NCBI GenBank assembly: GCA_014905635.1
Contig: JABVCE010000005.1
Location: 992,001-1,056,000 of the forward strand
From: Scenedesmus sp. PABB004
Lineage: Eukaryota
DNA: 64,000 bases
Direction: 5' to 3'
Part shown: piece by piece, positions 1-42,038 of the stretch
Layout of the letters: each line of letters opens with the position of its first letter
Numbering within the stretch: position 1 is the first letter of the stretch
Translations under genes and position numbers: made by a program
The notes under the pieces: model-generated
Told to the model about the DNA's origin: nothing
Seen by the model: only the letters and a program-made list of their open reading frames with translations
The model's database searches: none

Positions 1-2568
1 GCGGTGAGCGGCAGCCAGCCAGCCACGCGCACGCGCCGACCGCCCCTGCCCGCCCTGCCCGCCCTGCCCGGCTGCCTGCCCCAGAGCTGCCCGCGGACGC
101 CGACTGGGGCTGCGCCGCCCTGCGCGAGCTGACTCTGAACGCGCCCAGGCTGCGCGAGCTGCCCGAGGGCATGCTGGAGCGGCTGGCCAAGCTGCGCAGC
201 CTGCAGCTGATCGAGTGCGGCCAGCTGCAGGGCCTGCCTGAAAGCCTGGGCGCCTGCACCGCGCTGGAGCGGCTGGACCTGCACTTTGCAAGTTATGGCT
301 ACCGCCCCGCCGGCTTCCGGGGCCTGCCGTCCAGCGTCACGCGCCTCGGCGCGCTCCAAGAGCTCAGCGTGCGCGGCGGCACCGGCCCCGCGCTGCTGCC
401 GGCCGACTTTGGCGCCGCCGGCGGGCTGGGCGCGCTCACGCGCCTGGCCGTGGAGGGCAGCGGGGTGGTGTCCCTCCCGGCGGACCTGTCGGGGCTGGTG
501 TCGCTTCGGAGTCTCGTCGTGAAGGAGTGCAGAGCCCTTGCCCACGCGGCGGGGCTGTCCACGCTCACCGCCGTCACAGAGCTGTACATCCACGAGTCCT
601 CCCAGCTCCGCTCCCAAGTCGACACGCGCGCGATGGCAGACCTGCAGCTGCTCACCATCAGCAACTCGCCAAATCTGCCGGCGCTGCCGCCGGGCGCGCT
701 GGCGGGCAAGCCCCAGCTGTCGTCTGTCTTCGTCCAGGCCGCCGGCGCCTGCCTGGACAGCCTGGGGGCCGACGCTTGGAGCGCGGGCGGCGCGCTCACC
801 AGCCTGTGAGCGCGCGACCAGGCGGGGCGCGCGCTCCATGCCCCGCACGCGCCTGCCGGGGTGGGCGCGGCGGCGCTGCTCGCTCCCTCACGGTCGCCGC
901 TGCTGCCGCCGCCGCCGTCACTCCAGGTACCTGCACGGCGGCAACGCCCCCGAACACTACTGGCTTTACCGTGTGCAGGGGCGGCCGACCAAGCTGGCCC
1001 AGCTGCCGGCGGCCGCGGCGCCGCTCACGGCGCTGGTGTCGCTGGAGCTGTGCGCGTTCAGCGGCCTGCAGTCCCTGGACGGCCTGGGGCTCGGGCCACA
1101 CTGCGGCGCGCTCACGTCGATTGCCATCAGGGTGCGGCGCTCGCGGGCTGGCGCCGGGCGGAGCAGCCCGCCTCCGCCCCTTGGCTGCGTTGCGCGGGCC
1201 GCCTGCCGCCCGCGCCCACTGCGCCCGACGCACCCGCTGCGCTGTGCTGCCCTCCCGCAGAACTGCCAGGCGCTCACGCACCTGCCGGCGGGCGTCGGCC
1301 AGCTGCCGCGCCTGGTCAGCCTGGTCGTGGACAGCTGCGCCATCAACGGGCTGCCCGACCTCCACCAGCTCGGCGCGCTCACGCTCCTGGAGCTCTCCAA
1401 CTGCCAGAAGATTGAGGCACTGCCCCACCTCGGCGGCGGCTTCTGCGACGGCCTCACCGCGCTGCGCGAGCTCACCATCGACGACTGCCGCCGGCTGCGC
1501 ACCATCTCGGGTCTCGGCGCCGCGACAGCGCTGCGCGTCCTCAAGCTCTCCCGCCTGACCAAGCTGCAGGGCGTGTACGGCAACTGCGACCAGGTGCCAT
1601 GCGTGTCCTTGGAGCTGACCAAGCGCGTCCTGGTGCTGCCCAACGCCCTGCGCGCGCTCCTGCCCCAGACAGAGCGCTGGGCGGAGTGCGTCGAGATGGA
1701 GGAGCCCCCAGCCAGCGAGGCGCCCGCGCCACCGCCGTCGGAGCCCGTGCCTGACGTGGACGATGAGGACGTGCCGGGGCGCGGCCCCACGCGTGAGCGG
1801 CGGCGGGGGCCGGCGGCTCGCGAGCGCCGGCGCGGCGGCGGCGGCGGCGGCGCTCGCAGCGCTGAGAGCTAGCGGCTCCGCGGCCGCCCGCCGGGCCGCG
1901 CTGCCGCCCACTGACCCGGCTGCGGCCGCGCGCGGCGCCGCGCAGGGCGTGCGTACCCGCTGAAGGTGCTGCGCCGCAAGGACGACGCTGACGAGCTGAG
2001 CGACGCCGCGTGGGAGGAGCTGGTGGAGTCTGGCTTTGAGGACCGCACGCCGCAGGCGGTGGTGGACCACGTCTCTCAGAAGCCCGCCAGCGGCAACGGC
2101 GCGGACGAGTGGCACGTGCTGGTCAAGTGGCGGGTGCGGCTGCCGCGCGGGGCTGGGCGCATGCCGCTGCAGGATCGGCCGGCCGCGCGCGCGGCGGCAG
2201 CGCCCGCTGCGTGGCCGCCCGCGGGCCAGGCGCGAGGGGGGCTCAACGCCCGCACCGCCCGCCCGCCGCCCCGCGCGCAGGGCTTTGCGGTCAACCCGAC
2301 GCGCGACTGGCTGCCGCTGGAGGTGCTGCTGCGCCGGTCGGAGCGCGTGTGGGAGAGCTGGGTGAGCCGCACCAAGCCCCCCTACTTCACCGCGGTCAGC
2401 CTGGAGAGGGCCGAGGCAGAGTTCAAGGCGCACCGGGAGCGAGAGGCCGCCGCCGCCACGCAGGCGGCACCCGCGGCGCAGCTGGCGGCGGGCGGGCGCG
2501 GCGGCCGGGGCGGGCGCGGCCGAGGCGGGCGCGGGCGGGGTCGCGGGGCGCGGCGCAGCGGCGCGTGA
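1..2568 (+). CDS. LRR protein with C-terminal chromodomain-like domain and RGG tail (5'-truncated by window edge; paralogue of 38339-42038)
   Basis: Exons encode LxxLxxLxLxxCxxLxxLP repeats (LRSLQLIECGQLQGLPESLGACTALERLDL). Spliced C-terminus VVDHVSQK...WHVLVKWR|GFAVNPTRDWLPLEVL, then GGRGGRGGRGRGG. GT-AG introns; stop TGA ends at 2568. Confidence 0.8.
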
Positions 2569-10845: not shown

Positions 10846-19202
<8,357 letters not shown>

Positions 19203-19831: not shown

Positions 19832-20330
19832 GGTGAAACACGGTGGAAACACGGTGAAAGCACGGTGAAAACACGGTGAAAACACGGTGAAAACACGGTG
19901 CAAACACGGTGGAAACACGGTCAACATGAAACACGGTGAAAACTCGGTGGAAACACGGTCAACATGAAACACGGTGAAACACGGTGAAACACGGTGAAAC
20001 ACGGTGAAAACACGGTGAAAACACGGTCAACATGAAACACGGTGAAAACACGGTCAACATGAAACACGGTGAAAACACGGTGGAAACACGGTCAACATGA
20101 AACACGGTGAAACACGGTGAAACACGGTGAAACACGGTGAAAACACGGTGAAAACACGGTCAACATGAAACACGGTGAAAACACGGTGAAAACACGGTCA
20201 ACATGAAACACGGTGAAAACACGGTGAAAACACGGTGAAAACACGGTGAAAACACGGTGAAAACACGGTGAAAACACGGTGAAAACACGGTGAAAACACG
20301 GTCAACATGAAACACGGTGCAAACATGGTC
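19832..20330 (+). repeat. A-rich minisatellite of (A)AAACACGGTG units with AAACACGGTCAACATG variants
   Basis: Dozens of tandem 10-11-bp units with interspersed 16-17-bp variants; no unique spacers. Confidence 0.95.
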
Positions 20331-20581
20331 ACCGTACGGTAAAACGTATGGTGCACCGTGATGGTGACCGTACCACGGTCGCGCTGCGACCGCTGCTAAA
20401 ACACCGCGGTCAGCCCGCGCGCAGCAGCGGCCGCCCCAACCGCCGCAACCGCTGCTGCTGCCGGCAGTCGCCCGTGCCGCAGCCTGGCCGCCCGTCAGCG
20501 AGGTCGTAAGCTGCATTTCGAGCGCATCGAGTGGCGCCCCGGGGAGCAGCGGCGGCGGCGGCGGCGGCGCGGGCAGGAGCA

Positions 20582-22761
20582 ATGGCGGCTGCCGCTGCCG
20601 CGCTGGCCTGGCTCTCCCGCGCCGCGCCCGGCCTGACCCCCGCTTGGGCCGCTGCTTCGGCACTTGCGCTGCTTCTGGGCGCGGTGCTGTGGCTGCTGCG
20701 ATCGCACGCGGGCCGCGCGGTGGGGTCGCACAGGCGCGGCCTCCGCTGCTGCCGCTGCTGCCGCGTCCGGCGCCGCCGGCCGCTGCTGCCACCCCACCAC
20801 CTCGCCGCCCGCACTGCAGGCCCACCAACGTGCCGGCGCTGCCGGGCGGCGCGGCGCTGCTGGGGCACGCGGCCGCGCTCGCGGCGGTGCCGCCCGGCGG
20901 GCTGGCCGCCTGGCTCGCCGCGTCGGCGGGCGCGATGCAGAGCCGGACCTTCGCCTTCACCCTGCCGGCCTGCCCCACGTTCCACGTGGTGCGGGGGCGC
21001 GCCAGAAGCCGCGCAGCGCGGCTGGGGCTGCCGCGGCGCGCCCAGCGCGCGCACCGGCGCCGCGCGCCAGGGCGGTCGCGGACGCCGGCCGCCGCAGGTC
21101 ACCGACGCCGCGTGCGCGGAGTTCGTTCTGCGCATAGAGCGTCAGAGCTTTGCGCGCACGCAGCACGCGGCGCACCCGACCAGCGCGGTGCCGGAGCGGC
21201 CGCGCGGGCGCGCCGCGGCGGCGCGCGCGGCGGCGGCGTGGATGCTGCAGCGGCAGCACCTCGCCGACGCGCTCGGCGCGCCCAGGTGGGCGCGGCGCGG
21301 CGCGGCGCGGCGCGGCGCGGCCGCCCCACGCGCAGCGCGCGCTGGAGCGCCGCTTGTGATCCCACCGCCGCCGCCGCCGATCCCGCCGCCGGCAGCTTCC
21401 CGCGCTGCGTCGACGCGGGCTTTGCCGCCGCGCTGCCGGGCCTGGAGGCGCGCCTCGCGGCCGCGGCGGCGGCGGGCGGGTGCGTGGACCTGCACGACCT
21501 GATGCACCGCTTCACGCTCGACTCGTTCGGCACGATCGGCTTCGGCGTCAACCCCGGCTGCCTCGCCGCCGAGGGCAGGGTGCCCTTTGCCGCCGCGCTC
21601 GACGACGCCGGCGCCGCCGCGGCGTCGCGCGGCGCCGACCCCTGGTGGCAGCTGCGCGAGCGCCTGGGCGGGCGGCGCGCCGCGCGGGCGCGCTGCTGGG
21701 CGGCGATGCGCGCCTGGGGGCGCGACGCGCTCGGCGCGGCGGCGGCCCGGCGGCCGCCGCCGGCGACCGAGCCGGGCGCGCCGCCGGACCTGGCGGCGGC
21801 GCTGCAGGACGCGTGCGGCAGCGAGGCGCAGCTGGTGGACGCGGTGCTGAACTTCATCATCGCCGGCCGCGACACCACGGCGCAGGTGTGTGCGTGGCGC
21901 GCAGAGTCGCGCGCGGCGCGCGCCGGGGGCCTCGCGCGCGGGCGCAGCGCCGCAGCGCTCACGCCGCCGCCGCGACCGCGGCCGCCTCTGCTCTCTGCGT
22001 GTCGTGGCCAGGCGCTGTCGTGGACGTTTTACGAGCTCATGCGGCACCCCGCGGCCGAGGCGGCGCTCGTGGCCGAGGTGCGCGCCGCGCTGGGCGACGG
22101 CGGCGCGCGGCCGAGCTACGAGCAGGTGCGGGGCCTCCGCTTCACGCGCGCCTGCTTCCTCGAGGCACTGCGCCTGCACCCCCCGGTGCCGCAGGTGAGC
22201 CGCGCGCGGCGTCGCGCGGCCCGCGCGGCCCCGCGCGGCCCGGCGGCGCCGCCCGCCCGCGCGCAAGAGGGCCCGGCTGGCGCCGCGCCCGCAGACGTTC
22301 CGCGTGGCCTCTGAGCGCGTGACGCTGCCCGACGGCTCGGTCGTGCCGCGCGGCGGCGTGCTGCTGCTGTCGCCGTACGTCATCAACCGCCTGCCGGGCT
22401 TCTGGGGCACCGACGCCGACGACTTCAGGCGCGCACCGCGGCGGCGGCAGCGGCGGCGGCGGTGTGCGCCGGGCGCAGCGGCGAGACCCCGCCGCGGCCC
22501 ACGCGCCCCGCGCGGCGCCTGCGCAGGCCGGAGCGCTGGCTGGAGCTGGAGGGCGAGGAGCCCAGCGCCTACAGCCACCTGACCTGGGGCGCGGGGCCGC
22601 GCGCGTGCCCGGCGCGGCGCGCGGTCGAGGGCCCATGCGTCGCGACGGTCGCGGCCATCGCGGCGCGCTTCACGCTGACGCCGGCGCGGCGCGCCGCTGA
22701 CGGTGGCGGCGGGGAGACGCCAGCGGGCGAGCTGGTGGCTCCGGCGGCGCGGCGGCGGTGA
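20582..22761 (+). CDS. Cytochrome P450, CYP86-clan-like, divergent copy
   Basis: TM N-terminus, LPGGAALLGH, RFTLDSFGTIGFG, NFIIAGRDTTA, EALRLHPPVP, PERW, atypical heme motif TWGAGPRACPA. Confidence 0.8.
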
Positions 22762-23082: not shown

Positions 23083-25448
23083 ATGGGCGCCGCCGCGGTC
23101 GTGGAGGAGCTGCTGGCCCATGCCGGCCGGCTGGGCCTGGCCAGCACCATGCGCGGCCTGGCCAGCACCACGTCTGCGCAGCTCGTGCTGGCTGCGGCCG
23201 CGATCGCCCTGATCGCGTGGGTGCTCAGCGGCAGCGGCGCCGCGGCGCGGCACGGGCGCGTGCCCGAGCTCCCGGGCGGCCTCCCGCTGCTGGGCCACGC
23301 CCTGGAGGTGCTGCACAACCTGCCCCGCATCCACGACTGGCTGCTCGAGAGCACGCGCGCGATGGGGCACCGCACCTTCTCGTTCGCCGTGCCGACGCTG
23401 CCCCGCTTCTTCATGGTGCGCCGCAGCGTGGCCGCAGCGCCCGGCCGCGCCGCCGCGCGCGCCGCGCCGCGCCGCACCTGACACGCGCGCGCGCCGCCAG
23501 GTCACTGACCCCGCGAGCCTCGAGTACGTGCTCAAGACCCACAACGACTCGTTCGTCAAAGGCAAGGTCTTTGAGCGCAACTTTGGCGAGCTGCTCGGGC
23601 ACGGCATCTTCACCCAGGACGGCGCGTCCTGGCTCTGGCAGCGCAAGCTCGCGACACACATCTTCAGCGTGCGCGGGTGCGCCGCGGCGGCGCGCCATGG
23701 CGGCGCCGCCGCGCGCCCGCGCGCGCCGCGGTGGTGCTGGCACCCCGCCCCAGGCTGTCGCGCCGCCCGCTGATGTTCAACATTGAACGTTGAACCCCGT
23801 GTGATGCCGGCAGGTTCAAGCAGTACATCAACGAGGTCTTTGGCGCCAAGATGGAGCAGCTCACCGCCAAGCTCGCGGACGCGGCGGCGGCGGGCGGGTG
23901 CGTGGACCTGCACGACCTGATGCACCGCTTCACGCTCGACTCGTTCGGCACGATCGGCTTTGGCGTCAACCCCGGCTGCCTCGCCGCCGAGGGCAGGGTG
24001 CCCTTTGCCGCCGCGTTCGACGAGGCCCAGGTGGTGAGTGGCCGCGGCGCGGCGGCGCGCCGGGCGGCGCGCGGGGTGTCCGCGGCCCCGCCTCGCGGGC
24101 CCTGCTCAGGCCCAGCGTGCGGCGGCGGCGCGCAGATCGTGAACGCGCGGTTCTGGGTGCCGCTGTGGCCGCTGGTCGAGCTACTCAACGGCAGCCGCGC
24201 CCGCCTCGCGCGCGACTCCACGGCGGTGCGACGCTTCGCCGCCGACATCATTGCCACGCGGCGCGCGCGGCTCGCCGCCGCCGCGGCGGCGCCCGCGGCG
24301 GCCGGCGACGGCGCGGGCGAGGAGGCGCCGCCGCCGAGCGACCTGCTCTCCCTGTTCCTGGACGCGACCGGGCCGGACGGCCGCCCGCTGAGCGAGGCGC
24401 AGCTGGTGGACGCGGTGCTGAACTTCATCATCGCCGGCCGCGACACCACGGCGCAGGTGGGTGCAGGGCGCGCGGAGGCGCGCGCGGCGCGCCCCGGGGG
24501 CCCCGCGGGTGGGCGCAGCGCCGCAGCGCTCACGCCGCCGCGCCTCGGCCGCCTCTGCTCTCTGCGTGTCGTGGCCAGGCGCTGTCGTGGACGTTTTACG
24601 AGCTCATGCGGCACCCCGCGGCCGAGGCGGCGCTCGTGGCCGAGGTGCGCGCCGCGCTGGGCGACGGCGGCGCGCGGCCGAGCTACGAGCAGGTGCGGGG
24701 CCTCCGCTTCACGCGCGCCTGCTTCCTCGAGGCACTGCGCCTGCACCCCTCCGTCCCCGAGGTGCGCCGCAGCGGCCGCCGCCGCCCCCGCCGCGCGCGC
24801 GCCGCCGGCCCCGCCGCCGCCGCCCCCGCCGCACCTCACGCGCCGCCGCTCACACGCGCCGCCGCGCGCCGCCACCCACGCGCCGCCGCCTCCCCCGCGC
24901 GCCCCCGCCCCTCTCACGCGCGCAGGACGTGCGCTACGCGTCGCGACGGCACGTGCTGCCGGACGGCAGTGTCATCCCGCGCGGGGGGCAAGTCGTGTAC
25001 AGCCCCTACGTGGTCAACCGCCTCACCAGCTTCTGGGGCGACGACGCAGACGACTTCAGGCGCGCCCGCCCGGCTGCGGCAGCAGCAGCCAGCCCCGCCG
25101 CGCCGCGAATGCAGCTCGCCCGGCGCCGCCCACCCCCTGTCGGCCCGGGCGCCGCGGCCGCGCCGCGCGCGTCGTGCGCGCCACCCACGCAGGCCGGAGC
25201 GGTGGCTGTCGCTGGAGGCGATGCCCAGCCCCTACAGCTACCTCACCTTCAACGCTGGGCCCCGCCTCTGCCTCGGGCAGCGCCTCGCCGAGCTGGAGGG
25301 CGTGTACGTGCTGGCGGGGCTCGCCGGGCGCTTTGCGTTTGCGCGCGCCGGCCCCAACCCGCCCGGGCCGCGCTACACCGTGGCGTCGACGCTGCCCATG
25401 GCCGGCGGGCTGCGCGTGGCCGTCGCGGAGCGCGGCCGCGCCGACTGA
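23083..25448 (+). CDS. Cytochrome P450, CYP86-clan-like (CYP704/86/94-type)
   Basis: PGGLPLLGH, LLGHGIFTQDGASWLWQRK, DLLSLF, NFIIAGRDTTA, EALRLHPSVP, PERW, FNAGPRLCLGQRLA. Confidence 0.92.
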
Positions 25449-36376: not shown

Positions 36377-37975
36377 TCATGCGGTGATGTTGGGGCAGTT
36401 GCTCTGCACGGGGACGTTCTGTGGGTTGGAAAAGACTGGCCCCGCGGACGAGAGCACCGCGTCGGGGCTGCACGTGATGGTGATGTCGCCCGCCCCGCCG
36501 ACCACGCGGATCGCCGGCGAGCCGGGCCCCGACGTCGCGATCGTGCCGTTGATCACGACGCGGACGCCCGTGGCCTTGATCCAGAGCCCCGGCGCGTTGG
36601 CGCCCACCGTCGTCACGTCGCCGAGCAGGAACTCGTCGAGGCGCTCGCCGAGCAGGCTCACGCCCTCGGACCGCGGCCCCGCGGTGCCGATGCTGCTCCC
36701 CGGGCGCAGGCGCGCAGTGATGAACGAACCGTTGACCGACACGCCCTCGCTGTCGGGGCCGGTCGTGGTGATGCTGCCGCCAAACTCGAGCGTCGTCGCT
36801 TCGTCAGTGCCGACCCCGAAGGAGGTGACGCTGATCCCCTCGCTGTTGTTGCCCCGTGTGCGCACGGTGCCGGTGAGCTCGACCGTGCTGGCGCTGCCGG
36901 TGTGCGAGACGCCCTCGCTGTTGGGCCCGTACGTGTCGATGGCCGCGCTGATGGCGGTCGTGAACTTGGCCGGCCCGACCACGCCGGCCTTCAGGGAGAT
37001 GCTCACGCCCTCGGAGTCGGAGCCGTGCGTGGTGAGGTTGCCCGCGATGGTCGAGTCGACGCCCGCGCCCGTGATGCTAATGCCCTCGCTCTTGCGGCCA
37101 AAGCTCTCAAACGTGGAGTTGACGCTCAGGCTGCCGCCGATCGCCGTGACCGACACAATTTCAGACTGGGCGCCTGCGCGGGCGGCAGCGGGGCGGGCGC
37201 GCGTGGGCGCGGCGCGCGCGCGCGTGCTGCCGCGCGCCGCCCGCGCGCCCGGCGCGCGCACCGCGCGTGGTGTAGTTGCCGCCGTTGACCTCGGCGCGGA
37301 AGCCCAGCGCGGGGTCGCTGCTCGCGGCAGCGGCGGCGGCAGCGGCGGGCGGGCGTCGACGTCAGCGCAAGCCAGCTGGGCGCGCGCGGGCGGCGGGTCG
37401 GCGCTGCAGCGCGCTCCGCACCTGCTCTTCAGGCCAGAGATGGAAAAGATCTCAGAGTTGTCGCCGAGCGTGTCAGCCGAGGCGCTGGGCTCGGCGGTCA
37501 GCGTGCCGTCGTTGCCGCACAGGGACGCGTACTCGCCGTTGCCCGCGACGCTGTCAAACCTGGCGCGGCGGCGGCGGCGCGGCGCGGCGCGGCGTGGGCG
37601 CCCCGAGGGCGGCACCGCGCGGCCCCGACGGCGGCCGCCCCCGCGCCGCCGCGCCGCCGCGCCGCCGCACCGGCCGGTGACGGTGATCTTCCCCCGCTCG
37701 CCGACGACGTAGATGCCCTCGTTGTTGCCAAACTTGCGGCCGCCCGAGCGCGCGCGGCTCATCCCGACCACGCCCGAGAAGATGCGGCCCGCCGTCGCCA
37801 CGACTGCGTCGTCGCCGCGCACCTGGATGCCCGGCGAGTTGTTGCCGCCCATGCGCAGCTCGCCGTCGTTGGTCACGCGCGCGCCCGCGCCCTGCGACGG
37901 CGACGGCACTAACACGCCGCCGACGCGCTCGTTTGCGCGCCGTGCCGCAGCGCTGAGCTGCGGGGTCACCACCGC
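36377..37975 (-). CDS. Beta-helix-type repeat protein with TxGxxSEGxSx repeats (5' end unresolved)
   Basis: About 12 repeats, e.g. THGSDSEGVSI, TYGPNSEGVSH, TRGNNSEGISV, TTGPDSEGVSV, TAGPRSEGVSL, TVGANAPGLWI; three apparent GT-AG introns between ~37174 and 37675. Confidence 0.7.
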   Translation of the reverse strand, partial: AVVTPQLSAAARRANERVGGVLVPSPSQGAGARVTNDGELRMGGNNSPGIQVRGDDAVVATAGRIFSGVVGMSRARSGGRKFGNNEGIYVVGERGKITVTGRCGGAAARRRGGGRRRGRAVPPSGRPRRAAPRRRRRARFDSVAGNGEYASLCGNDGTLTAEPSASADTLGDNSEIFSISGLKSRCGARCSADPPPARAQLACADVDARPPLPPPLPRAATPRWASAPRSTAATTPRAVRAPGARAARGSTRARAAPTRARPAAARAGAQSEIVSVTAIGGSLSVNSTFESFGRKSEGISITGAGVDSTIAGNLTTHGSDSEGVSISLKAGVVGPAKFTTAISAAIDTYGPNSEGVSHTGSASTVELTGTVRTRGNNSEGISVTSFGVGTDEATTLEFGGSITTTGPDSEGVSVNGSFITARLRPGSSIGTAGPRSEGVSLLGERLDEFLLGDVTTVGANAPGLWIKATGVRVVINGTIATSGPGSPAIRVVGGAGDITITCSPDAVLSSAGPVFSNPQNVPVQSNCPNITA

Positions 37976-38338
37976 CAGTTGATCCGTGGCTCGCCGCCGC
38001 GGCTTGCGTCCGAGCGGCGTGCCGGCTGCCCAGCGCCGCGTGTGCCAACTCCACAGCGGAGCGGCGCGGGCGGCGGGGGCCGCACGGGCCAGCGTGCTGG
38101 CAACTCAACTGTCACACACGCACGCCGTCGCCTCGCGCCAGCACCCGACGGCGCGCCGCCGCGCAAAGCAGGGCCAGCGCACGCGCGGATGCAGCCTGCG
38201 GCCCGGCCGCTCGCTGCTTATTCCGAGCGCTCGCGCCCCTCCCGCTGCTGGGCCGAGATGGCGCCACACCGACGCCCGCCCCACGAGCATCGATCCCCCC
38301 ACCGTGACCTCACACCGCCCCGTGCGCACGCACGCAGC

Positions 38339-41300
38339 TCACGCGCCGCTGCGCCGCGCCCCGCGACCCCGCCCGCGCCCGCGCTGGCCGCGCCCGCCCC
38401 GGCCGCCGCGCCCGCCCGCCGCCGGCTGCGCCGCGGCTGCCGCCTGCGCGGCAGCGGCGGCCTCCCGCTCCCGGTGCGCCTTGAACGCTGCCTCGGCCCT
38501 CTCCAGGCTGACCGCGCTGAAGTAGGGGGGCTTGGTGCGGCTCACCCAGCTCTCCCACACGCGCTGCGACAGGCGCTGCAGCACCTCGAGCGGCAGCCAG
38601 TCGCGCGTCGGGTTGACCGCAAAGCCCTGCGCGCGGGGCGGCGGGCGGGCGGTGCGGGCGTCGAGCGCCCCGCGCGCCTGGCCCGCGGGCGGCCACGCAG
38701 CGGGCGCTGCCGCCGCGCGCGCGGCCGGCCGATCCCGCAGCGGCACGCGCCCAGCCCCGCGCGGCAGCCGCACCCGCCACTTGACCAGCACGTGCCAGTC
38801 GTCCGCCCCGTTGCCGCTGGCGGGCTTCTGAGAGACGTGGTCCACCACCGCCTGCGGCGTGCGGTCCTCAAAGCCAGACTCCACCAGCTCCTCCCACGCG
38901 GCGTCGCTCAGCTCGTCAGCGTCGCCCTCGCGGCGCAGCACCTTCAGCGGATACACGCGCCCTGCGCGGCGCCGCGCGCGGCCGCGCCGGGTCACCGGGC
39001 GGCAGCGCGGCCCGGCGGGTGCGCGCGCGCCGCGGCGCCGCGGCGCGGCTAGCTCTCAGCGCTGCGAGCGCCGCCGCCGCGGTGCCCGCGCGTGCGCGCC
39101 GCCGCCGGCCCCCGCCGCCGCTCACGCGTGGGGCCGCGCCCCGGCACGTCCTCATCGTCCTCCTCATCCAGCAGGGGCTCCGACGGCGGCGGCGCGGGCG
39201 CCTCGCTGGCCGGGGGCTCCTCCATCTCGACGCCCTCAATCCAGCGCGCCGTCTGGGGCAGGAGGGCGCGCAGGGCGTTGGGCAGCACCAGGACGGGCTT
39301 GGTCAGCTCAAAGGACACGCATGGCACCTGGTCGCAGTTGCCGTAGACGCCCTGCAGCTTGGTCAGGCGGGAGAGCTTGAGGACGCGCAGCGCTGTTGCG
39401 GCGCCGAGACCCGCGATGGTGCGCAGCCGGCGGCAGTCGTCGATGGTGAGCTCGCGCAGCGCGGTGAGGCCGTCGCAGAAGCCGCCGCCGAGGTGGGGCA
39501 GCGCCTCAATCTTCTGGCAGTTGGAGAGCTGCAGGAGCGTGAGTGCGCCGAGCTGGTGGAGGTCGGGCAGCCCGTCGATGGCGCAGCTGTCCACGACCAG
39601 GCTGACCAGGCGCGGAAGCTGGCCGACGCCCGCCGGCAGGTGCGTGAGCGCCTGGCAGTTCTGCGGGAGGGCAGCACAGCGCGGCGGGCGCGTCGGGCGC
39701 AGCGGGCGCGGGCGGCAGGCGGCCCCCACAACGCAGCCAAGGGGCGGAGGCGGGCTGCTCCGCCCGGCGCCAGCCCGCGAGCGCCGCACCCTGATGGCAA
39801 TCGACGTGAGCGCGCCGCAGTGCGGCCCGAGCCCCAGGCCGTCCAGGGACTGCAGGCCGCTGAACGCGCACAGCTCCAGCGACACCAGCGCCGTGAGCGG
39901 CGCCGCGGCCGCCGGCAGCCGGGCCAGCTTGGTCGGCCGCCCCTGCGAATGGTAGCCATAGCCGTAGTGATAGCCGTAGTGATAGCCATAGCCGTGTTGC
40001 GCAGACGAGTAGTGGTTGGTGGCGTTGCCGCCGTGCAGGTACCTGGAGCGGCGGCGGCGGCAGCGGCGGCGACCGTGAGGGAGCGAGCAGCGCCGCCGCG
40101 TCCACGCTGGCGGGCGCCTGCGGGGCACGGAGCGCCCCCCCCCCCCCCCCCCCCCCCCGCCTGGCCGCGCGCTCACAGGCTGGTGAGCGCGCCGCCCGCG
40201 CTCCAAGCGTTGGCCCCCAGGCCGTCCAGGTAGTAACCGGCGTCCTGGACGAAGACAGACGACAGCTGGGGCTTGCCCGCCAGCGCACCCGGCGGCAGCG
40301 CCGGCAGGGCCGGCGAGTTGCTGATGGTGAGCAGCTGCAGGTCTGCCATCGCGCGCGTGTCGACTTGGGAGCAGAGCTTGGTGCACTCGTGGATGTACAG
40401 CTCCGTGACGGCGGTGAGCCCGGACAGCCCCGCCGCGTTGAGGGCGCTGCACTCCTTGACGACGAGGCTCTGCAGCGATACCAGCCCCGACAGCTCCGGA
40501 AGGAACGCGACCCCGCTGCCCTTGATGGCCAGGCGCGTGAGCGAGCCCAGCCCGCCGGCGGCGCCAAAACTGGCGGGCAGCAGCATGGGGCCGGTGCCGC
40601 CTTGCACGCACAGCTCCTGCAGCGCGCCGAGGCGCGTGACGCTGGACGGCAGGCCCCGGAAGCCCGCGCCGGTGTTGTAGCCGTAGCGATAGTTTGCAAA
40701 GTGCAGGTCCAGCCGCTCCAGCGCGGTGCAGGCGCCCAGGCTTTCGGGCAGGCCCCGCAGCTCGCTGCACTCGGTCAGCCGCAGGCTGCGCAGCTGGCCC
40801 AGCTGCTCCAGCATGCCCTCGGGCAGCTCGCGCAGCCTGGGCGTGTGCAGTATCAGCTCGCGCAGGGCGGTGCAGCCCCAGTCGGCGTCCTCGGGCAGCT
40901 CTGGGGCAGGCAGCCGGGCAGGGCGGGCAGGGGTGGTCGGCGCGTGCGCGCGCGCGCTGGCTGCCGCTCACCGCCCGCCGCCTGCGTGGCCCGCTCACCG
41001 TCCTGGTGCGTCTGCAGCTCCAGCCGCGTGAGCGCGGCGAGCATGCCCACGCTGGGCATGCGGCGCGACGTGCGCTCTGCGGTAAAGTGGGCACCGAACA
41101 CGAGCAGAGCGCCACCGTACATCATCGGCAGAGCGTTGTGCCGGCCGCACAGGTCCAGCGACAGCGCCGCCAGCCTCGTCAGCTGCTCGATGCCCGCCGG
41201 CGTGGCCTCCAGTCGGGGGCAGTTCTGGGGGAGGCAGCCGGGGGACGGGAGAGATGGTGGGCGCCTGCGCGCGCCGGCCGCGGCCCCGCCGCCCGCCGCT

Positions 41301-42038
41301 GGCCGCCCGCCCCTGGCCTCTGCGCGTGCGCGTGCGCGCAGCGCGCACCGTCAGCGCCAGCTCCGTCAGCAGGCTGCAGGGCGCCAGGTCGGGCAGCTTG
41401 GCGACCTCGTTGCAGCTGTCGACCCGCAGGGACACCAGGGCGGTCAGGCGTGACACCCACGCCAGGTCCACGAGATCGTCAGACGAGCGCGGCGAGAGCA
41501 GCTCCAGCGCCTCCAGCCGCGCTGCCGCCACAGCCGCCGCACCAGCGGCCGCGGGCGGCGTCACGGCAATGCTGTACAGCGCCAGGCGCTTGAGCTGCGG
41601 CAGTGTCCACACGGCGGCGGGCAGCACGCTGCGCCGGTAGGCCTGGCCCGTCATCTTGAGCGACGTGAGCAGCGGCGCGCTCGCCGCGAGCACGCCGAGC
41701 ACGTCAGCCACGGCCTCGCTGGTGGAGAAGCTCAGCTCCAGCGCCGTGAGCCGGTCCAGGCCGACGCCGCGCTGCAGTTTGCGCCAGGCGACCGAGTCCA
41801 CGTCGACGTGGCCGCGGAACTGGACGAGCGGCAGCGGCGCCCGCGCGGCGCGCCACGCCGCGCATACCAGCTCCGCCTGCAGCGTGTCGCGCGCGCTCGG
41901 CAGCCGCGACAGCACCTGCCGCGTGACCTCGTCGTCCTGCGGCCAGCCGTCGCCGGCGGCGCGCGCCGCCTTGGGCGAGGGCGGCGCGGTCGCTGTTGCT
42001 GGCGCAGCCGCTGCTGCGGCCGCGCTGCTGCTGGCCAT
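38339..42038 (-). CDS. F-box-like + LRR + chromodomain-like + RGG protein
   Basis: N-terminal WPQDDEVTRQVLSRLPSARDTLQAELVCAAWRAA (F-box-like); LRRs; WHVLVKWR|GFAVNPTRDWLPLEVL; RGG tail; collinear exon/intron match to 1-2568. Confidence 0.82.

Follow-up and report, generated by a model that had tools for sequence, protein, structure and literature searches.

What makes two inverted copies of one gene differ so sharply at a few short, Tyr-rich segments? The question is raised by a 64-kb stretch of the genome of the green alga Scenedesmus sp. PABB004 (assembly GCA_014905635.1, contig JABVCE010000005.1, positions 992,001 to 1,056,000 of the forward strand; hereafter ‘the window’, with coordinates counted from its first nucleotide), which carries a leucine-rich repeat (LRR) gene in two copies, A and B. 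We see that the variable segments are real and that their variability is statistically supported. The explanation we favour, albeit tentatively, is that they are intra-repeat loop-outs on an LRR adaptor of the SCF (Skp1–cullin–F-box) type, varied by slippage under weak constraint. Diversifying selection, and with it the analogy to immune receptors drawn in a first-pass annotation of the same DNA, is unproven; the pairwise sequence data neither establish positive selection nor exclude it.

Two inverted copies of a leucine-rich repeat gene

The window is G+C-rich throughout (72–83%), with genes split by short GT-AG introns. Compared against itself with BLASTN, it yields one long inverted match between positions 1–2667 of the forward strand (copy A) and 40974–38245 of the reverse strand (copy B), with 89.2% identity over 2760 columns. 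The copies are convergent, with ∼35.7 kb between them, and their similarity stops ∼100 nt beyond the stop codon they have in common.

As modelled, copy B occupies 38339–42038 of the reverse strand and encodes 967 amino acids (aa) in seven exons (42038–41349, 41224–40999, 40900–40177, 40042–39790, 39660–39126, 38961–38774 and 38626–38339). All six of its introns are GT..AG (41225–41348, 40901–40998, 40043–40176, 39661–39789, 38962–39125 and 38627–38773; 98–164 nt), and the 967-codon frame is uninterrupted. Copy A, truncated by the start of the window inside intron 2, covers 1–2568 of the forward strand, its exons 3–7 lying at 85–805, 927–1131, 1261–1792, 1946–2133 and 2281–2568; its reading frame stays open for 644 codons and ends at the same stop codon as copy B. 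Exon 3 is 100% identical to P0001, an NCBI protein of Scenedesmus sp. PABB004 (1753 aa, labelled ‘popC’), residues 430–1328 of which have exactly the junctions of our copy B model and include all three of the loops described below.

Three loops at one position of irregular repeats

The repeats of copy B are interrupted by three inserts, all encoded on the reverse strand: loop 1 (FANYRYGYNTGAGF; 40659–40700) in irregular LRR11; loop 2 (GNATNHYSSAQHGYGYHYGYHYGYGYHSQG; 39940–40029), a Gly/Tyr/His-rich segment of 30 aa in irregular LRR18; and loop 3 (RHNALPMMYGGALLVFGAHF; 41084–41143) in irregular LRR7. The corresponding segments of copy A are FASYGYRPAGF for loop 1 (285–317, forward strand) and GNAPEHYWLYRVQG for loop 2 (940–981, forward strand), copy B being the longer by 9 and 48 nt, respectively; the counterpart of loop 3 lies off the window. 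The first-pass annotation had described two LRR copies with differing loop peptides, and every peptide it quoted is present at its locus; its placing of loop 2 of copy A at 940–981 also holds, although for loop 1 of that copy its coordinates (284–316) fall one base out of frame. The third loop it listed, of lower G+C, is likewise there: the loops have a G+C content of 57–64%, as against 73% for the coding sequence and 87% for the introns.

The position of the insert is identical in all three repeats: it follows immediately on the LxxLxL beta-strand, at the point where regular repeats carry the sequence CxxLxxLP. LRR11 and LRR18 reach 33 and 55 aa, respectively, with the 14 other repeats laid out measuring 22–28 aa. 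In a protein-library scan with HMMER, the best stretch of many LRR matches ends at model residues 371–373, just before loop 1, and that of others starts at ∼583–586, just after loop 2. In an AlphaFold2 (AF2) model of the 899-aa protein, loop 1 lies directly behind strand E368–372 with a predicted local distance difference test score (pLDDT) of ∼77–82, and loop 3 has a pLDDT of ∼51.

The loops are in frame in both copies under the GT-AG model, and those of copy B are also part of the NCBI model P0001. That they might be unrecognised introns was considered and rejected: when the sequence was read through, just one GT..AG pair was noticed around the loop 2 repeat; at 64 nt it is half as long as the real introns (98–164 nt), and its removal would shift the frame of the downstream LRRs. 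On the basis of frame, G+C content and this lone 64-nt pair we reject, as far as is possible short of cDNA, the notion that the loops are spliced out.

Loop 2 of copy B contains, according to Tandem Repeats Finder, 2.8 copies of a 12-nt unit encoding GYHY (39958–39991 of the reverse strand; 95% matches, score 61) and, at 39953–39993, a 6-nt period repeated 6.8 times. Opposite this repeat copy A has a 48-nt gap, and its own loop 2 is free of tandem repeats; in a six-frame scan of the 64 kb, loop 2 of copy B is the only run of at least three (G/H)Y dipeptides. As the 48 nt gained by copy B consist of the 12-nt GYHY unit, their origin is to be sought in replication slippage or unequal exchange, and the slippage-driven variation suggested in the first-pass annotation, on the strength of the same unit, is borne out in this respect. 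Both copies keep the aromatic, Tyr-rich character of the loops.

Divergence between the copies and its mosaic pattern

With the caveats that the limits of the loops were drawn post hoc and that alignment beside indels inflates mismatches, copies A and B differ at 16 of 75 aligned loop sites and by a further 57 gap columns, compared with 63 mismatches at the 695 other coding sites of the block that runs from exon 3 to loop 2 (Fisher P = 0.002) and 33 at the 543 sites of the four shared introns (P = 6e-5). The loops do change faster than the introns, as first proposed. The proportion of non-synonymous differences (pN) is 0.274 in the loops versus 0.086 elsewhere in the block (P = 9e-5), equivalent to about three times more replacements. 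Saying this, the intron that the annotation had taken as its yardstick lies within a tract of only 2.4% divergence, so that part of the contrast between loops and introns is owed to a probable gene-conversion mosaic.

Working along the gene, substitution divergence amounts to 9.8% in exon 3, 8.5% in intron 3, 5.4% in exon 4, 3.9% in intron 4, 4.3% in exon 5, 8.7% in intron 5, 3.7% in exon 6, 3.4% in intron 6 and 4.9% in exon 7. At 9.8%, exon 3 does not allow the copies to be called ‘otherwise near-identical’, and the near-identity claimed for their shared introns applies to introns 4 and 6 alone (124 of 129 and 142 of 147 sites alike), introns 3 and 5 carrying indels in addition to their higher divergence. 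In windows of 100 nt a mosaic becomes apparent, positions 85–984 of copy A having 89 mismatches over 891 sites versus 15 over 616 for positions 985–1600 (Fisher P = 2.8e-9); divergence is 10% up to loop 2 and 2.4% over the next 616 nt. The low-divergence tract (39321–39936 on the reverse strand in copy B) begins right after loop 2 and extends through the remainder of exon 4 and intron 4 into exon 5, most of which it includes, with exons and intron 4 equally alike. The synonymous rate (dS) is 0.045 within it, as opposed to 0.116 in the divergent block. Since divergence is reduced at synonymous sites and in intron 4 as well, gene conversion is to be preferred over selection alone, and the tract is, judging from sequence, probably a conversion tract between the inverted copies.

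When indels are compared with those of the introns, as had been recommended, all five exon indels (9, 48, 3, 3 and 3 nt) are multiples of three, compared with five of the ten in introns and flanks. A 16-nt indel in intron 3 is accounted for by a homopolymer of 24 nt (C, or G on the gene strand) at 40135–40158 of copy B; the corresponding run in copy A is short. In a mapping of reads to this region, reads appear cut at 40039–40172.

Relatives and a recurrent site of insertion

Neither the word-index searches of 5.8 billion clustered proteins nor an HMMER search of 1.84 billion representatives revealed a further close paralogue. From the word-index searches only P0001 itself emerged as a close match, those ranked after it being 28–40% identical; the full HMMER scan added P0068 and a remote relative, P0207. 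The product of copy A was not found in any of the protein-library searches, and a scan of metagenome DNA gave four loci at 28–38% identity and no close relative.

P0068, of 309 aa, is 41% identical over exons 2–3; it lacks loop 1, has a loop 3 shorter by 15 aa and carries a 13-aa insert of its own at the same in-repeat position of LRR14. P0207, ∼35% identical, combines an F-box-like motif with LRRs and has a shorter loop 1 in register, followed by the same LPSSV, as well as an insert in LRR14. Copies A and B also differ by a 3-nt indel in LRR14. Indels at this place in P0068, P0207 and the A/B pair mark the post-strand position of a few repeats as a recurrent site of insertion and deletion within a family that is small.

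Selection on the loops and the repeats

All selection estimates are pairwise, by the method of Nei and Gojobori (NG86), from two sequences. The ratio of non-synonymous to synonymous rates (dN/dS) is 0.98 from exon 3 to loop 2 (dN 0.114, dS 0.116; 23 synonymous and 59 non-synonymous differences), 0.26 in the LRRs after loop 2 (6 and 4) and 0.60 in the C-terminal part (13.7 and 23.3). No class of site significantly exceeds 1, the ratio (omega) being 1.10 at ascending-loop positions and 0.59 at the concave-face x positions. Within the loops, pN/pS is 0.274/0.182 (∼1.5), which is not significant (P = 0.53), and the concave-face x positions are not enriched for replacements (11 of 80 versus 38 of 329 elsewhere, P = 0.57). 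The diversifying selection put forward in the first-pass annotation finds no support in these figures.

The main rival explanation is neutral drift: the loops would be unconstrained low-complexity spacers and the N-terminal LRR block would have relaxed after duplication. We regard this as a serious contender, if on the doubtful side. A ratio of 0.98 at rates close to the divergence of the introns (8.5–8.7%) is what drift would give, and it would also leave the loops with a pN/pS not significantly above 1 and the concave face without enrichment; the predicted disorder of loop 2 in the AF2 model and the lack of loop 1 in P0068 fit it as well. The distribution of replacements does not follow so readily: just one of 48 sites changed at the hydrophobic core positions 1, 4 and 6, compared with 11 of 80 at concave x positions and 37 of 281 at the rest, and it is from this conservation of the core that we conclude the LRR fold to be kept. 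Also at odds with drift are the five exon indels, all of which keep the frame, the retention of Tyr-rich aromatic loops in both copies, and a homologue of loop 1 in P0207, a protein only ∼35% identical. Finally, with P0068 as outgroup, eight replacements are private to copy A and eight to copy B; the two copies thus show no inequality of rate, which again counts against drift. We conclude that fold and frame are under selection in both copies and that the exposed positions of LRR8–18 evolve at an approximately neutral rate.

Architecture of the encoded protein

The gene is a lineage-restricted one of a green alga, encoding an F-box-like motif, ∼24 LRRs and a putative chromodomain-like tail. 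The F-box-like motif (Pfam PF12937) falls at residues 32–64 of the model (41847–41945, reverse strand), the Pfam match itself covering 36–64, and aligns in register with that of P0207, which passes the Pfam cutoff at 24.8 bits. The ∼24 repeats are of the LxxLxLxxCxxLxxLP kind, 16 of them tabulated in register. Exon 3 exceeds the respective Pfam cutoffs for LRR_8 (34.6 bits; cutoff 27), LRR_R13L1-DRL21 (29.2; 27) and LRR_4 (27.2; 27), and P0001 does so for LRR_14 (60.8; 40). AF2 predicts the solenoid at a pLDDT of 85–98 for model residues 80–460 and 590–725, with one short strand per repeat; the F-box, residues 463–586 and the C-terminus are all below 50. Foldseek matches to this model are all LRR solenoids, SHOC2 being the first.

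The C-terminal region (exons 6–7 and intron 6; 38342–38959, reverse strand) comprises a chromodomain-like stretch followed by a tail rich in RGG. For its last 90 residues, a feature search of the ESM Atlas placed 28 of 30 matches in the chromodomain cluster set (top score 0.93), a lead that is unconfirmed: Pfam gives no match to Chromo (PF00385) at E ≤ 1 in P0001 or in the read-through translation, and chromodomains are absent from the sequence matches in the PDB, of which there are two for the read-through translation and, for P0001, the best 60 of 132 were considered. An AF2 model of the C-terminal read-through region has a pLDDT of 40, too low for use.

Both copies end, after the chromodomain-like stretch, in an Arg/Gly-rich, RGG-like tail (38342–38430, reverse strand; 2480–2565, forward strand). 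Intron 6 (38627–38773, reverse strand; 2134–2280, forward strand) measures 147 nt and is in frame and stop-free in both copies, such that the read-through frame is open; four of its five differences would be replacements, which fits non-coding sequence.

The LRRs themselves bring to mind an immune receptor-like family, in which the inserts would bind ligands and be under diversifying selection, as in the nucleotide-binding LRR receptors (NLRs) and receptor-like proteins (RLPs) of plants. The best sequence matches of solved structure, among the best 60 of 132, are indeed LRRs of the TIR-NLRs Roq1 (7jlv, E 1.5e-11) and RPP1 (7crb, E 2.1e-11), and of 12 library relatives scanned, six have NB-ARC, four TIR and two Roc. 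Replacements are concentrated three-fold in the loops, and conversion next to a divergent LRR block is typical of R-gene clusters (cf. the introduction of PMC4030839). We nevertheless consider an immune receptor unlikely. No Pfam match to NB-ARC or NACHT occurs at E ≤ 1 in any exon or in P0001, the same scans found neither TIR nor kinase, and no transmembrane part was found in the gene; what stands at the N-terminus instead is F-box-like. Two copies are all that came to light, neither the 5.8 billion clustered proteins nor the 1.84 billion representatives yielding a close paralogue; omega does not exceed 1 and the concave face is not enriched. Of the likeness that the first-pass annotation saw, the inserts at a fixed place of irregular LRRs stand; for want of NB-ARC, NACHT and TIR, and with two copies only, the term ‘immune receptor’ reduces to a resemblance in LRR type.

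Independent DNA and the integrity of the locus

Of three metagenome runs mapped as independent DNA, only short contigs of low depth fitted; those of two freshwater runs match the locus. One of them (run X1, record 5) crosses loop 1 of copy B over 322 nt with no differences. At 15 of the 22 variants checked (within 38245–40974) the base is that of copy A, hence A-type sequence is present too. Among the pieces listed from the three runs, none spans loop 2.

Another contig (run X1, record 4; 40312–40548) is B-like with two other letters, but it has the 3-nt insertion of copy A behind 40438 and matches that copy at bases 40479 and 40494. It could derive from a wild relative in which the allele was recombined or converted.

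We think it very improbable that faulty assembly (of collapsed or misjoined haplotypes) created the inverted duplicate, or that either copy is a pseudogene. In favour of such a reading, the 24-nt homopolymer at 40135–40158 and the seemingly cut reads at 40039–40172 point to difficult assembly in this stretch, and the exons are prediction-based. Against it, each copy has a frame that stays open over 644 codons, with all exon indels in frame; the similarity breaks off in both copies ∼100 nt downstream of the stop, within a single contiguous sequence; and the freshwater contigs carry B-type (322 nt, 0 differences) as well as A-type (15 of 22) bases.

Neighbouring features

The public gene model P0001 (36377–44548, reverse strand) appears to be a fusion of three genes. 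Its upstream part is a DUF1517 protein (residues 237–422; Pfam E 3.6e-52) and its downstream part a protein of repeats ending in ‘NSEGISV’ (open reading frame 36377–38104). Two observations suggest that the LRR gene is separate from these flanking parts and stands alone: the duplicated unit ends just past the stop codon (38339 in copy B, 2568 in copy A), and P0207 starts 26 residues before its own F-box motif, as does the copy B model. The locus is thus also an apparent instance of a public model fusing three genes.

Between the copies, self-BLASTN reveals two internally repetitive arrays (78–95% identity between units) and one direct duplication (85% over 592 columns; 97% over 156 columns); these repeats lie at 14870–15373, 19832–20331 and 21454–22262 versus 23872–24829.

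Discussion

Our preferred explanation, of slippage-varied loop-outs on an SCF-type adaptor, can be put as follows. The protein would be a putative substrate receptor of an SCF-type ubiquitin ligase, with its loops on the flank of the LRR arc forming, by analogy with TIR1 and COI1, part of a target-binding surface. Weak constraint together with slippage would then let the paralogues drift apart in what they bind, and the second block would have been homogenised by gene conversion between the inverted copies.

Several points weigh against this explanation. The F-box-like motif scores 21.8 bits (E 1.6e-4), under the Pfam cutoff of 24.3, and AF2 confidence over it is low (pLDDT < 50), as it is over loop 2 and model residues 463–586 (pLDDT < 50). 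The predicted exon structure of copy B rests on prediction together with the NCBI model. Rates derive from two full copies and two partial relatives, and are all pairwise and weak; a dN/dS of ∼1 is equally compatible with a plain lack of constraint, and the low divergence after loop 2 could in part reflect stronger purifying selection.

The nearest architectural parallel is provided by TIR1 and COI1, in which, according to PMC4030839, three long intra-repeat loops build the pocket for ligand and substrate. The likeness consists in an N-terminal F-box (F-box-like here) and an LRR solenoid with three loop-bearing irregular repeats. There is no detectable sequence kinship beyond the LRRs, however; the repeats belong to the CxxLxxLP type and are most similar to those of NLR and ROCO proteins, unlike those of TIR1 and COI1, which also lack the chromodomain-like region and RGG tail and whose F-box has its counterpart here in a motif under the Pfam cutoff. 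With Roq1 and RPP1 the gene shares the LRR class (LRR_R13L1-DRL21, LRR_8), a variable LRR block and conversion-like mosaicism, but it has no TIR, NB-ARC or post-LRR domain, exists as two copies and not as a large cluster, and has a dN/dS that does not exceed 1.

Inserts that are not themselves LRRs interrupt the regular array of the so-called LRR@IR proteins too (BRI1, PSKR and Cf-9; PMC4030839). Their islands are usually single, 40–70 aa long and situated between repeats of extracellular receptors, whereas we see three short loops (11–30 aa) within repeats of a probably intracellular protein. SHOC2, whose structure the AF2 model matches best (Foldseek E 7.9e-11, target-normalised TM score 0.54–0.66), is alike as a generic solenoid at 16–19% identity, but has neither an F-box nor such loop-outs. 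A further likeness is to coding microsatellites and contingency repeats, in that an in-frame array (12 nt, 2.8 times) alters the length of an exposed segment between copies; the array here is short, though, and the difference in length is known between the copies only.

A bolder proposal is that the microsatellite loop, loop 2, is a tunable specificity element resembling the complementarity-determining region (CDR) of an antibody, on an SCF receptor taken to chromatin by the chromodomain-like module. We think this improbable. Were it true, paralogues, and perhaps strains too, would acquire new target specificities through slippage, in what would amount to a eukaryotic ‘contingency’ receptor; F-box, LRR and chromodomain would, moreover, form a combination for which we found no description in the literature. 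Our literature searches found no description of an F-box, chromodomain and LRR gene in green algae, of an F-box protein with a C-terminal chromodomain, or of coding microsatellites in algal LRR genes; the papers naming Scenedesmus sp. PABB004 do not, by their titles and the opening of their abstracts, treat the LRR gene.

As it stands, the locus brings together three familiar processes, namely indel-prone LRR loop-outs, expansion of a coding microsatellite and conversion between inverted duplicates, and variable loops in such an A/B pair are a fairly ordinary pattern in a known kind of LRR gene. LRR receptor biology has been little studied in green algae. If the loops set specificity, the pair would be a natural experiment, in which the same scaffold has been partly homogenised by conversion while the loops differ, and it could show how LRR adaptors gain targets via slippage in green algae.

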